The position numbers were made by a program, and so were the translations under genes. From Antedon mediterranea (Eukaryota > Animalia > Echinodermata), in NCBI RefSeq assembly GCF_964355755.1, contig NC_092673.1:25912269-25976268 (forward strand): a stretch of 64,000 bases of DNA, read 5' to 3'. The notes beneath the pieces are model-generated. The model was not told the DNA's origin. It did no database searches and worked only from the letters and a program-made list of their open reading frames with translations. This document shows positions 1 through 64,000 of the stretch, piece after piece; position 1 is the stretch's first letter; every line of letters begins with the position of its first letter.

Positions 1-199
1 TTTTAATAATACAAAAGAATATACATATTATATGCCTTATATAGAGAACTTGTATATATTTCAATAATTTGTACAGCAAACTAAAATAAAAGTGGGACGA
101 GCCCATAAAAGACACAAAAAAAACAATATTGATTTAATTAGTTAACGACTGCATTTCTAGTAGCATTATTGGAACAAAACAGACATGCCTATGAGATTT

Positions 200-420
200 G
201 TGGTACCTGTTCGAATGCCTCATTAGGAACAGCTCTGTGAGAATTGGGAGATACGATCTTGTAATGGGGCCGGATGAGTGGCAGTGGCGTAAACCAAGGG
301 GCCCAGGAGCTTTACCCGTGGAAAAAACAGCATTGAAATATATCGAAAAGGGCTAAAAACGCCAGAAGCCTCCAGCATTGGATGGCCACTTGGGGTTCCT
401 AATCCAGGGGTATAATTTTT
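200..420. repeat. Dispersed (SINE-like?) repeat sharing its 3' part with 45180-45340 (…gggctaaaaacgccMgaRgccYccagcRttggAgggc…)
   Basis: Two copies in the same orientation. The second lies immediately 3' of the LINE fragment. Confidence 0.5.
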
Positions 421-2701
421 GACACTTGAATCTACGTAAAACTGAATTTATATTTTTATTTTATTTGTTTAAGAAGATCGCGAGAAAGGCAAAACAAAAA
501 ATCTCTGGCCTATGTATGTCTGCGAAAATACTATTAATTATTATTTTGTCTAAATCTAATAATTAAGGGCGATCAATAATGGTGCGTGGTATTTCCGAAG
601 AATAATTGTAATATTCACGACGATATTATTAAACTAGAAATACCGTATTCGATAATTAAATGACTGAGCAGCATTTAATGGACTTCATTTATTAAAGAAA
701 TTCATTTAAAAGCATTATGCGACGATAAAGTAGACTTAATAGCTGTTTTGAACCTTTGACATAAATAATGATAGTAATGTATGTCGCATCTTCATAATCA
801 ATAATTAAACAAAACGACGCAACACAAGCACGTGTTGCTTCTACGTTATCATTAAATAGGCCGATGGTCCAAACGTTTTTTATACTGTACAACATAACAA
901 TATATAGATATTTAATAATATGTAAAAAATGTATTTTATGAACCTTGGAATATAGTGAACAATGATGTCTTTGTTTTTAAATAACGTTATAGGCCTATTA
1001 TTTTGTGATTCCAAACACAAAACAGACAAACGATACCGAGATTATTTAATTAAAAATAATATTTCATTTAATTTTTTTTATTTAAAAGTCTGATTTTATT
1101 AATCATTATTTTTCAGGTTTTTGGGGGACAATACAACTTTAAAGAAAGGTCTAATAAATACAAGACATTTTAATTTTCATCAGTTTGTTTTATACATGCA
1201 AAATAGTCATTTATAAATCAAACTATTAGACGCGGTTTCATTATGTTGTTAAGCTTTATACGCACCAACGCAAACATCCATCTTGGAATTTGCTACTCAA
1301 CGTTTTAAGTGCTGACGTTCAAATATAATATAGAATATGAACAAACAACAATGGATATGCAAGTTATTAGTAAATATTTAAATATTATTAAAGTCATACG
1401 AACAGAGCAAAGTACATTCAACCAGTATTTTTAATTCGACAAAAATGAAGTCGACCAAAGATGTATTGTCCCCTAGAAATATAAAAAAAAATGATTAATA
1501 AAATCAGATTTTGAATTGCCATTTTGTAGTTTTAATCAAGTTAATCACTTCCGCAGAAAAAAAAAAATCGGGGAAAACGAAGCTTTCAAATCATGTTGAC
1601 AAAACAAACGGTTACATTCAACAAAAACCCATTAGACAATTGGACTATTTTTTGCCTTAAATTACAGTTTTTTTTCAGCAGGTAAATAGTTTTTTTCCAA
1701 TCCAATTATGCATGAAAAATGGCATATTCAACAAACCATTTTAAACAATTATTTTTAAAGCCTTTAATTCAAAACACGTATATATTTCACGTATAGGGGC
1801 CTAATGTTTGTTTTAGCCTAGCATGGTTACCTCCATGGTTTTACCAGGGAAGAATTTCACTCTTCCCTGGTTTTACCGAATATTTTCATTCAATGTTTGA
1901 TTTCTATCATCATGTCAGCATAAAAAGAATACTAAAAATAAAAACATTATGTATTTTACCTGTTACCTGTTAGTTTCCGTTTTTAACGGAAACTAAGTGT
2001 CACCTTTTTGGGTGGAGAAAAATGTGGTGTCAGTCAGTGTGACGCACGCCTCTACATTTTGGTCTAAAAACGTGCATAGGCCGCGCCTAAATAGAAAACA
2101 TCTTGTCGTTCGGGTGGGTCAGAAACACAATGTGAAACACATTGGAAGTATAGGCATAACCCCACACACCAAAGATATTTTAATAACCATATCAATACGA
2201 CATTTGTTAGCACTCGGTGTTTCTTTCTCCATTTTCCATTCACTTCTTACGTAACCAATTTCATTTGAATAAATTTGCAAAAATCTGAGATCAGATGATG
2301 TAGATCACAACGTCACATAACTTCTCACGATAATATGTATCACACTTTTGATTATTATATGTTTGATTGCATTTTCTAAATGCAGATTATATCATCATCG
2401 TTGCGACACTGTTGTCATGGAAATGTTGGTAACGTTAAGTGATATGTAAGTGAAAATGCATTACGAGATCGTTACCGTCATCATGATACAGTCAAGCGTT
2501 TAACATTTGCCTAATGACGCGTTAACTGCGCAAACGTTTATCAATATGTATGGGTATAGATTAATAGTTTATGTATTGAGAGATTGAAGTAAAGTATATA
2601 ATGGTATGGTATAATACCGAAATGAATTATATTCCTCGAATTGCATGTACAAAATAACATAATGAAAATTACCTCCCCAACATTTGCATATCTCACCTGA
2701 G

Positions 2702-60600: not shown

Positions 60601-63600
60601 AACTGAGATAGGATAACCCCCACTCACCCCCACTACTCCATATGAATGTGTAAGCGTGTTCAACCAATATAGTCTATTATTTAGGCTACACTAATGACGA
60701 CATGATACTCTGTCAACATTACAGCAGCAATATGCCGTGTAATCAATGCATTAGCCTCGTCGTTGAAATTGAATTACGCACGGGACACACCAGCCAATTC
60801 ATTTATCGCCTCTTCATGTTTATTTCATGTTTAAATTATTATGGTGTGGACAGAGGTCTAATTCAATCACTATGTCAACTTACGTTTCGCGTTTAGTGAA
60901 AGATAAACAAGCAACTAACTCATGCACAAACTTAATTCAAGTTGATTTCCTCAATTATTGTTGTTTGTTAAGTTAATTAAATGGTATTCTCCAAAGGTAT
61001 TAATCGTTTCCCATTTGAGACAAATCACCGGATCTCTTATCGTAAAAAAAGTTGTTTGTAGTTGTAGGAAATACTGAAGAGGAACGGAAGGCTAAACAAC
61101 AGTAGCAATAGTTAGGATTCTCCTCTTACTACGGGAGGCTTCAAATTAAAATTATTAAAAATTTTCTTAAAAATTACGTCCACATTGAACCCGGATTCGG
61201 TCACGTTATCATAGAAAACTTTTCGATCACAGACGTACATTTTGTACGGAATACGAAATGCGTTCGTTGTGCGTAGTTCTATTTTTAAACACGATTTTTT
61301 ATCTAGCAACCGAAACTGAATCCGGACTCAGTATGTACTTCAACATAGCTACGGGAGCTGGGAACCGACCTGTGATAATATAATACTCAAAAAGCTTAAC
61401 TTCCATTTTGGTATTAGCAAATCACATGGAATCGCTTTAGTAATCGTAAAAGCTGTCCAGATCATTTGTAGGCTAAGTCTTCTCGGACTTTAAAATCCGT
61501 TCATTCCAGGTCCGTGATTACTCAACCGAGATTATAAACGATTCAAATAACTTTCCCTTTAAGTTGGTTGGCTCAACGATAAGAATTGTTACACAACAGA
61601 AAGTAAATATTTCAATTTGGCAATTTCATAAAAAAATTCATTTAAAGTTTTAAACGAAAGTAACAAATACTTTTCCGTCAATATATATATAAGTTCATAT
61701 AACTAGGATAATAAAGTAATAGATTTAAAGAAATCATCGGAAATATCCTGGACATTTAGGTCAGGTCTCATTGGCCTGGTCTAGTTTGTCTGACCGCCGG
61801 CAATGGGGTGCCGGAGTTTAATTTAACTAGAATCTCCCTTAATTTGATTTGGGAATAATATTTCATTTGGAAACTGTCCAAGTTATAACCGATTCTCCAA
61901 CACACCTTCAAAAGAAAAAAAAATGTGAGAGTAGGTATGAGAACAATTTTTCAACTAAATCTAAAATTGTCTATTGCCAGACATTGGATGTTATTAAGCC
62001 AAACAAAACGACTATACAGTCAGTAAGAACCAATGTTTAACTTTCGAGTGAGGAGAAAACTATAGGTTTTCACACATTGTCCACTCAGACGGCCGGACAA
62101 GATAAGTAGTACTTATTTTGTCCTTGATTCAGAAGACACTTCTATGTTAAAAGAGGGCACTTTTTTGGCTTCAGACCCCCTTTAATAGGAATTCTACTGT
62201 ATCACATTTCATCATGAATTTCATTTTTTAAGTAAAATTTAATTCTTATATATTTTTCTGTATGCCGTACCTATTTTGGTTAATCCTATAATTTGTTAAA
62301 ATCGTATATAGAGTTTCTATTTCTAACGACCTATATATTTATATACTTGTGGGAGTCTACGGTATGTTTTTATTTATATAAATTACAATAAGTTATAATC
62401 ATAGTTTATCCATCCTATAATTGGTGAGTTTCTCGCGGTTGAATGTGCGTATGAAAAAGAAAAAAGAAAAAAAGACACTTGTTAAAGAGATATCCGTATT
62501 GAAAAGTAAGGCAATTTCTGTATGAAGTATGAATCCCTATATTACTCTTTTTCTTTATTTTCTTGTTTGTATTTAGGTAAATTGCCAAGGATAACTATAA
62601 GCGAATTCATTCACTATCTTTCTTAAGGTGGCAATCCCGTTCACAAAACAAACATACACAAGATGCTCTACATAAGTCTTTGGAAGTGGAGTTGGAGTTC
62701 TTACATTGCATAATAGTATCGGTCGTGATTAAAAAAAGGGGTTAGGATAGGCCTAATAGACAAACTCCTAATGTTTTTGTTTTTTTAGTTTTTAATTAGT
62801 TTTTTATGTTCACGTCCCGCTTGTTTGCATATGTTAAGGCAGATTCCTTTAGTCTTATTTATTATCTTTATTTTGAATACTCTATCATCGATAAACATAT
62901 TATATAATCATTCTTAATGGCTATTTCAAATCAACCAGTGCGTGCCTTTACATTTTTGCGCAGTCAGGTCCGACTCAGGCGGTTGATAAATACCACGTAA
63001 TGTTTTCAATGTAAAACGTTGCCGAGCAATTAACTGCAGGTCACATCACGGAATAAAATCATCACATGTGCACACAGGTGGTCATTATAAAATTGCTGTT
63101 TATATAATATTGTTATTAAATTTATTGGTGCAAATGGAACGACTATTAGACTAATATAAATATCCACTTAATACATCGTTATCAATGCATGAACGCAATT
63201 AACTCAAACAGCGACGAGAGTATTAACTTTCCTGATTCAGTTCAGTGGCATTTATAACGGTATTAATGTTTGCGGATTCTTAATTCTGCTTCTTTGCAAA
63301 TAATTTTTAGAAAATTCAAAGCTCACAAAATAAATGCCCGTTAGAATTTTGTGATTTATCGTATCTTTTATAGAAAAATACTGTAATTTTTTCGAATTGC
63401 AAACAATTACGGTCCGCGAAAATAAAAAACTTTACGGTAAACTGATTTATTGCATCTATTTCTGTAATAATTTGTACTGAAGTACACTTGGTAGGAATCC
63501 ATTATCAGATGAATAGATTTAGACTTTGTTTGTATATCAGTTATCGACCAATATCGGCTAACAGACAATAATCCGTCATAGTGATTACACGTAAACATCC

Positions 63601-63896
63601 TATGAATGCTAAATATGTGTCAATCGCTTCACTTAATTAAAATAATTATAATATATAATAATTATAATATATAATAATTATAATACTACATACTAAATAA
63701 TTAATAGTGAGAGATACATTTTTCGCAAAAAAAATACAATAAAAGAAATGTGTATGAAAGCGTGATGTTTATTGTATTTGATTTTTTAATTAAATAACAT
63801 GGAATAAACATCTACCTTAAAGATGATTGTCCCCCAAAAACATGAAAAATTAAGATTAATTAAATCAGATTTTGAGTAGGTTATTTTGTAGTTTTT

Positions 63897-64000
63897 AGTC
63901 GCGTGGACGCGACTCTATAGTTCACTATGTCGGTCGGTCGGTCGGTCTGTCGGTCTGTCGGTCTGTCTGTCGGTCCGGTATCACTATGCGTTTTAGCACG
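63897..64000. repeat. Z-unit repeat (same as 10297-10400 and 10955-11060), truncated by the window end
   Basis: tttttagtcgcgtggacgcgactctatagttcactatgtcggtcgg(tcgg/tctg)n ggtccggtatcactatgcgttttagcacg. Confidence 0.8.

Follow-up and report, generated by a model that had tools for sequence, protein, structure and literature searches.

The palindromic octamer TAGGCCTA occurs 30 times in a 64-kb stretch of DNA from the echinoderm Antedon mediterranea (NC_092673.1, positions 25,912,269 to 25,976,268; hereafter the window, to which all coordinates below refer). As a comparison of sites with and without the motif shows, it arises by insertion of 6 bp, GGCC plus a duplicated TA, at a TA dinucleotide. 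The copies are probably scars left by the excision or deletion of a cut-and-paste transposon which inserted at TA and had GGCC ends.

The abundance of the octamer was determined by exact counting, which also found 38 copies of its core, AGGCCT. The expected number of octamers was 0.54 in 100 dinucleotide-preserving shuffles of the window (maximum 3) and 2.27 in 200 order-3 Markov simulations (maximum 7). It was 1.04 when the motif's own contribution to GGCCTA was taken out of the training sequence of the order-3 model. The enrichment was thus 13- to 55-fold across the null models. Once tandem repeats were masked, no 8-mer was more over-represented than TAGGCCTA (z = 26) and no 7-mer more so than AGGCCTA. 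The core was 6.5-fold over the dinucleotide shuffles (38 versus 5.9) and 2.2-fold over order 3, and this excess was owed wholly to the full octamer. Half-sites, in which TAGGCC is not followed by TA, were found 26 times versus 27 expected. The first-pass annotation of the window had claimed such an over-representation from reading by eye and had set a 2-fold excess over a higher-order Markov expectation as the limit of its claim. The claim holds, with the octamer far beyond that limit. Its figure of roughly 40 or more AGGCCT sites was right about the abundance and slightly too high as a number. Its example positions all fall within 9 bp of a real site, and two of them (4053 and 23961) are AGGCCT sites matching seven of the eight octamer bases only.

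It is hardly credible that the octamer owes its presence to chance or base composition, or to an artefact of sequencing or assembly, for example a linker. An order-5 Markov model does reproduce the count (22 expected), but only because the motif's own 6-mers are part of its training data. Against this explanation, 0.5-2.3 copies are expected under Markov orders 1-3 and dinucleotide shuffles, insertion occurs specifically at TA, and the motif is present in independently assembled metagenome contigs together with matching empty sites. We therefore regard it as refuted by the shuffle and Markov counts and by the empty sites and density in the metagenome contigs described below.

The insertion was observed directly in a 93-bp tandem array (29414..30232, plus strand), one unit of which carries an octamer at 29706..29713. 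This filled unit reads CAATA-TAGGCCTA-CTCATC, and its sister units read CAATA-TA-CTCATC, with empty sites for example at 29539-29552, 29624-29637, 29807-29820 and 29900-29913. Aligned by the inserted bases, the filled unit is TATCAATA-TAGGCC-TACTCATC and the sisters are TATCAATA------TACTCATC. In a longer reading the filled unit is TATCAATA-TAGGCC-TACTCATCAAC, and five of the six listed sisters are TATCAATA------TACTCATCAAC apart from scattered substitutions. The sixth has TA at the site, preceded by C, and TA is thus present in all six. A clean 6-bp gap was obtained in whole-unit pairwise alignments, which were used instead of MAFFT on short unit segments, where a nearby 4-bp indel shifted the gap. 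Between the inserted bases and the flank the overlap is TA at most, so that the event is TA to TA-GGCC-TA. A 3-bp target duplication does not fit this overlap and was rejected. The array holds both states of a TA duplication, an empty TA and a scar of the form TA-x-TA.

To look for the motif elsewhere, metagenome contigs were scanned for three octamers within 30 + 30 bp, a pattern for which we estimate about one chance match. At least 120 contigs matched. Among the matches listed were 89 eukaryote-like contigs with 38-47.5% G+C and low coding density, which came mainly from a few JGI project series. The density estimate excluded the clusters that were used to retrieve the contigs, telomere-like high-GC arrays (L035, L048, L093, L103, L105 and similar) and motif-bearing tandem repeats (L005, L060, L064); 312.6 kb remained. 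In this sequence the JGI contigs among the matches listed held 166 further octamers, or 0.53 per kb, versus 2.8-7.4 expected in total. The density is the same as in the window. Among the matches listed, TAGGCCTA was the commonest 8-mer of the JGI contigs, ahead of poly-A. No DNA similarity was detected between the eukaryote-like JGI contigs and the window. The loci of pantothenate kinase (PANK), a gene also present in the window, were compared in four other species with 61-71% protein identity, and they hold zero to one octamer per 20 kb. The signature is thus lineage-specific and not general.

The JGI sequences supplied six further pairs of filled and empty sites. The empty site was TA in four of them (L018_2040 versus L112, L041_1702 versus L020, L059_3355 versus L124 and L042_3098 versus L081), TG or CG in one (L041_1729 versus L020) and AA in one (L059_3375 versus L124). 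A pyrimidine is favoured directly outside the motif in the JGI copies, i.e. R-TA-Y. The first-pass annotation had also offered a preferred insertion target as an explanation of the motif. This option is not supported as its origin, since the matching empty sites hold TA and not the octamer. Its third option was a protein-binding or mutational signature. As to binding, the excess of one-mismatch variants described below fits neutral decay and not maintenance, and a mutational signature describes the motif correctly only if a recurrent insertion scar is meant.

The copies are scattered through the window and are listed here without strand. A solitary copy with unique flanks lies at 990..997. Exact counting placed further copies at 2988..2995, 3390..3397, 3650..3657, 4540..4547, 4990..4997, 5095..5102, 19679..19686, 26701..26708, 27804..27811, 28934..28941, 29217..29224, 40126..40133, 40638..40645, 41756..41763, 43263..43270, 45321..45328, 46264..46271, 49969..49976, 50427..50434, 52739..52746, 53651..53658, 53780..53787, 54688..54695 and 62748..62755. 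The copy at 48705..48712 borders a 21-bp repeat array and is uninformative for the empty-site comparison. Three more (21566..21573, 23948..23955 and 26383..26390) stand beside two inverted-repeat elements described below. One-mismatch variants were found at 4054..4061 (TAGGCCTc), 27617..27624 (aAGGCCTA) and 27874..27881 (TAGGCCTc). The first of these is probably a decayed copy, judging from the count of AGGCCT sites, the flanks and the excess of variants.

Beyond the eight bases the copies have nothing in common. The 45 bp on either side of every site are unrelated among copies, and positional composition showed only a mild A/T preference two bases outside TAGGCCTA. Listing of the flanks, positional composition, a self-BLAST of the 38 sites and pairwise alignment of the ends all failed to show homology between copies beyond 8 bp. 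Because their flanks are unrelated, the copies are not a repeat family. Members of a family of miniature inverted-repeat transposable elements (MITEs) or of solo terminal inverted repeats (TIRs) would share homology beyond the terminal motif, which these do not. The first-pass annotation had likewise found the sites not confined to one repeat family, and we agree that they lack a common flanking sequence.

One-mismatch variants of TAGGCCTA were found 34 times in the window versus about 15-18 expected, and transition variants 13 times versus 5.9. The 30 intact and about 17 singly decayed copies correspond to a divergence of roughly 6-7%. The excess of variants is consistent with neutral decay and speaks against strong maintenance. 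Placement among TA sites is near random (variance/mean P = 0.19), with weak clustering, and we do not claim local hopping because this test was not significant. There is a single 14.6-kb stretch without an octamer (P = 0.013), and none of the 30 octamers lies within the gene bodies of PANK or of an N-acetylneuraminate synthase (NANS)-like gene (P = 0.013). The gap and the absence from these two gene bodies are no more than a hint of uneven placement.

These two features, together with the perfect palindrome, could be read as signs of a functional site, bound by a dimeric DNA-binding or insulator protein, that was seeded by a mobile element and kept mostly intergenic by selection. We consider this improbable. 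With one copy per 2 kb the motif is far denser than a regulatory site would be expected to be, its one-mismatch and transition variants are in excess in a way that fits neutral decay, and the overall clustering is weak. Moreover, new copies come by insertion and not by point mutation toward a consensus, and the motif is missing from the PANK loci compared in four other species.

A scar of this structure can be accounted for by a transposon of the following kind. The element would insert at TA and duplicate it, as in the Tc1/mariner/pogo group, and its inverted ends would start with GG...CC, probably GGCC...GGCC. On its departure a few terminal bases would remain on the donor, and end-joining would seal them as TA-GGCC-TA. 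Such a scar is necessarily palindromic, since each end is the inverted copy of the other and TA is self-complementary. If the non-transferred strand were cut 4 nt inside the GGCC ends, each flank would carry a self-complementary GGCC overhang. Overhangs of this kind could be ligated without processing, which would account for the uniformity of the scar. Alternatively, a 2-nt stagger with both GG overhangs kept, or deletion of the element through microhomology between its palindromic ends, would give the identical product. We infer both the origin of GGCC from a transposon terminus and the geometry of cleavage.

The mechanism would be of a known kind. In Sleeping Beauty and mariner elements the non-transferred strand is nicked a few nucleotides inside the element, the terminal bases stay on the donor, and end-joining leaves a footprint between duplicated TAs (PMC7827188). 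Like the footprints of the Tc1/mariner/pogo group, TAGGCCTA has a duplicated TA around a few bases, is symmetric, as would be expected of inverted ends, and stands alone in unique DNA. The bases between the two TAs differ: they are GGCC here and CAG/CTG or CA+TG in the known footprints, which are TAC(A/T)GTA for Sleeping Beauty and of the TACATGTA type for Tc1 and Tc3. TAGGCCTA also differs in its unusual uniformity and in an abundance that makes it the top 8-mer. The GGCC sequence and this abundance appear undescribed, and full-text literature searches found no description of the motif.

Two large structures in the window may preserve the state before excision. When the inverted-repeat structures of the window were listed without bias, with a 106-bp satellite left out, AGGCCT was found just outside both arms only in elements A and B, the two large structures listed. 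In a second approach, all TAGG...CCTA pairs up to 20 kb apart were searched for inverted ends and the 150 bp inside every AGGCCT pair were compared. A and B were the only pairs above background in this search of the window for intact elements. Element A (21568..23953, about 2.39 kb) is non-coding and foldback-like, with inverted subterminal arrays at 21615-21755 and 23672-23933 made of units of about 21-22 bp (GGGTACGAGTAAGCCAAA type). It is flanked by CTAGGCCTAG at 21565 and again at 23947. The octamers within these flanks (21566..21573 and 23948..23955) lie 41 bp outside the left arm and 14 bp outside the right arm, and the alignment of the right-end TIR begins immediately after TAGGCC. Element B (23996..26388, about 2.39 kb) is likewise non-coding and foldback-like. 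It has inverted arrays of a 15-bp unit (GGACAACTACCCCCC) at 24025-24275 and 26015-26319 and internal 22-bp arrays. Its flanks are cAGGCCTA on the left (23994) and TAGGCCTA on the right (26383), the latter copy being 63 bp outside the right arm. The 15-bp repeat had no match in the metagenome scan. Neither element has a strand assigned.

Read as TA|GGCC...GGCC|TA, A and B are candidate survivors of the family which left the scars, although their membership is uncertain. A further case of inverted ends was found in L090, where a 655-bp segment has ends matching at 19 of 20 positions (TAGGCCTAnTAGGCCTAcac) with two octamers in each end. Of the explanations offered by the first-pass annotation, the footprint of a short TIR comes closest to these data, given the 6-bp insertion with duplicated TA and the octamers outside both arms of A and B. 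The part of it that has to be given up is a surviving TIR of a repeat family, as the copies are solitary, have unrelated flanks and share no sequence after TAGGCC.

Long arms of short tandem sub-repeats without coding capacity are also found in foldback elements, such as Drosophila FB, sea-urchin TU and C. elegans Tc4 and Tc6, and A and B have such arms, with sub-repeats of 21-22 bp in A and 15 bp in B. Known foldback families make duplications of 8-9 bp or TNA, and sea-urchin TU elements make duplications of 8 bp. The octamer might then be the preferred 8-bp target of foldback-type elements, duplicated on insertion, with its abundance due to a separate cause. A and B are indeed flanked by direct repeats of TAGGCCTA or AGGCCTA, with CTAGGCCTAG on both sides of A. 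We nevertheless find this quite improbable. It leaves the origin of the octamer unexplained, and empty sites hold TA only. Octamers make up 0.4% of the window, and two independent insertions into them would need extreme specificity. The matching ends in L090, at 17-20 bp, also exceed the length of a target duplication.

A recurrent insertion without any transposon was considered as well, for example a nuclease cut at TA followed by fill-in, the addition or templating of a fixed GG at each 3' end, and joining. It would agree with the 6-bp insertion demonstrated at TA, with the very uniform product and with our failure to find a parent element or common TIR. No process is known to us by which a constant GG would be added at both ends. 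The octamer flanks of A and B and the inverted ends in L090 would be coincidences under this explanation, and the presence of the scar in contigs without detectable DNA similarity is better explained by a mobile element. For these reasons we hold it to be unlikely.

Several observations weigh against excision scars of a TA-inserting transposon. The first concern the two candidate elements, each represented by one copy, whose flanks fit either an 8-bp duplication or TA plus GGCC termini. The TAGGCCTA...TAGGCCTA arrangement around them could equally be an 8-bp target-site duplication. In both elements the arms start 14-63 bp inward of the octamers. At the left end of A there are 24-26 additional TAG-rich bases, in B the outer 61-71 bp of either side do not align as inverted repeats, and the left flank of B reads cAGGCCTA and not the full octamer. 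The second concern the parent element. No element bearing a transposase was found in the 64-kb window or in 0.48 Mb of JGI loci. Inspection by eye of the 52 open frames of at least 75 aa in the window found no transposase-like open reading frame (ORF), and Pfam scans of one ORF from the window and nine from the JGI loci detected no transposase. Half-sites are not enriched in the window (26 versus 27) and no TIR consensus follows them, nor was a common TIR found after half-sites in the JGI loci; intact copies must therefore be rare or extinct. The remaining points concern the scar itself. Experimental footprints are usually more varied than the uniform TAGGCCTA, and to our knowledge no TA-duplicating family with GG or GGCC termini or a 4-nt stagger has been described. 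Within the window, self-BLAST of the 38 sites yielded just one usable comparison of a filled site with an empty one. The one-base-shorter TAGGCTA/TAGCCTA is not enriched in the window (13 versus 10).

The shorter form was raised in the JGI loci, with 171 versus 71 expected. TAGGNCCTA was found four times in the window versus one expected, and TACATGTA, which is TA+CA+TG+TA, was enriched both in the JGI loci and in other species' PANK loci. The Sleeping Beauty-type footprint TAC(A/T)GTA (TACAGTA/TACTGTA) was the second most over-represented 7-mer in the window, with 54 sites versus about 19-21 expected. These sites may be a second class of transposon scar. Examples lie at 883, 3215, 3795, 13022, 27161-27171, 34233 and 55419, and none of the 54 is in a tandem repeat. 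TACCGTA/TACGGTA was also raised, with 18-20 sites depending on masking versus about 5-7.

Other transposon groups and other palindromes were compared with the motif. Many ends of PIF, Tourist and mPing elements start with GGCC or GGGC, and mPing-type excision is usually precise. Elements of the PIF/Harbinger-ISL2EU-Spy (PHIS) superfamily move by cut-and-paste into short AT-rich targets, as is proposed here. Their duplications vary by group and include TWA, AT (target A|AT|T), none, ANT, CWG and TNA (PMC4482050). The duplication seen here is TA, which is off this list, and 3-bp readings fail at 29706; the motif does not fit this superfamily in that respect. ISL2EU was rejected as the parent family because it duplicates AT within A|AT|T and not TA (PMC4482050). 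HIP1 (GCGATCGC) of cyanobacteria is a perfect 8-bp palindrome, many-fold over-represented and scattered singly (PMC4390886). HIP1 and TAGGCCTA are alike as 8-bp palindromes dispersed singly in unique sequence. They differ in that HIP1 is prokaryotic, is tied to orphan methyltransferases and is not described as an insertion with target duplication, whereas the copies of TAGGCCTA have an animal host and are 6-bp insertions at TA. HIP1-type motifs belong to bacterial genomes, and the window is an animal locus with a multi-exon PANK gene and NANS.

Short segments between octamers were found near A and B and elsewhere. A 42-bp micro-segment at 23960..24001 (unstranded) consists of TAGGCCTg, 27 bp and cAGGCCTA, with GGCCTG...CAGGCC ends. 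With low confidence, it could be what an internal deletion has left of an element, or else element B's left end. The octamer at 27804-27811 and the variant TAGGCCTc at 27874-27881 enclose 62 bp rich in CTAG and GCTAG. This segment may also be an internally deleted remnant, again with low confidence. In the window, CTAGCTA/TAGCTAG occurred 19 times versus 4.3 expected and GCCTAGC/GCTAGGC 13 times versus 2.9, for example at 3143, 3839, 20041, 21508, 21580, 23999 and 27819-27870. Several of them are found no more than 200 bp from an octamer or at the ends of A and B, and they may be remnants of subterminal sequence.

In the metagenome, scars also stand back to back, for example as TAGGCCTA-CAG-TAGGCCTA or TAGGCCTATAGGCCTAGGCCTA (L007 341-360, L041 1778-1812 and L044 3137-3185). 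This suggests repeated use of the TAs made by earlier scars. In one metagenome case two octamers surround a perfect 23-bp hairpin (CCACTCATAATAATTATGAGTGG). A separate route to the motif was seen in L035, L048, L082, L093, L103 and L105 (58-66% G+C), which are telomere-like arrays with CCCTAA grading into CCCTAG and GGCCTA units. The (CCCTAG/GGCCTA)n arrays give runs of TAGGCCTA at 6-bp spacing and have no connection with the scattered copies.

The window is animal DNA with 33% G+C and three ORFs of at least 150 aa in 64 kb. The PANK gene is on the minus strand with exons at 18157-17786, 16959-16663, 13721-13617, 12821-12690 and 11635-11504, all five placed by tblastn with exons from L001. Its best match in the protein collection is 71% identical. 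The NANS-like gene is on the plus strand at about 32800-35800, and its exons were recognised in the translations as GDNPCFIIAEIGQNHQGD..., QEAGADCAKFQKSEL..., FPDIPVGYSGHESG... and the C-terminal LGKSVVAAKDIPAGT.... An ORF at 44248-44904 (plus strand) was recognised by eye as a C-terminal (reverse-transcriptase) fragment of a non-long-terminal-repeat retrotransposon from motifs such as KYLGCIIDNKLNW; Pfam gave no significant match for it. No Rfam family match and no tRNA were found in the window.

Several repeats accompany these genes. The 106-bp satellite forms arrays at 20736-21063, 28022-28437 and 30252-32318, of which the last has 18.7 copies and is inverted relative to the second. The second and third arrays form a large inverted structure at about 28.4-30.3 kb, which encloses three octamers and the 93-bp array. 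Other tandem arrays lie at 7166-7979 (32-bp unit, 25 copies), 15649-16452 (67-bp unit, 12 copies, in a PANK intron), 6290-6609 (48-bp unit) and 5337-5789 (151-bp unit). None of these four contains the octamer, and one unit of the 32-bp array has AGGCCT by a point change from AGGCGT. A short dispersed repeat with CATATTACTACCATATTTGGG occurs in both orientations, also inside the PANK gene, at 17370-17502, 46372-46418, 46642-46965, 51550-51643, 57555-57594, 10184-10291 and 11083-11134. It is probably a short interspersed nuclear element or MITE family.

A more far-reaching form of the transposon explanation can be put forward. An undescribed cut-and-paste element, or mass excision run by the host (e.g. 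a domesticated transposase purging a TA-inserting element), would cut 4 nt inside GGCC ends and reseal them through cohesive GGCC overhangs. In a genome of about 1 Gb or more, the identical scars left by it would number several hundred thousand, and it would have been active in at least two sequence sets without detectable DNA similarity. Taken as a whole, this proposal is rather unlikely.

The motif has practical consequences. It will skew k-mer based analyses of the genomes that carry it, and it makes StuI (AGGCCT) sites about 6-fold denser than in dinucleotide shuffles and 2.2-fold denser than under order 3. Once an element has departed, its cut-and-paste activity normally can no longer be seen. 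If the octamers are excision scars, the departures of DNA transposons would have left a fossil record that can be counted, with about one event per 2 kb. In a genome of about 1 Gb with constant density, these events would number hundreds of thousands. Excision rates, target choice and repair outcomes would then be measurable straight from sequence. The same scar in contigs without detectable DNA similarity raises the possibility of horizontal spread. Finally, the scar predicts the ends of an undescribed transposon, with a TA target, GGCC termini and possibly resealing by cohesive ends, and thereby gives a handle with which to search for it.

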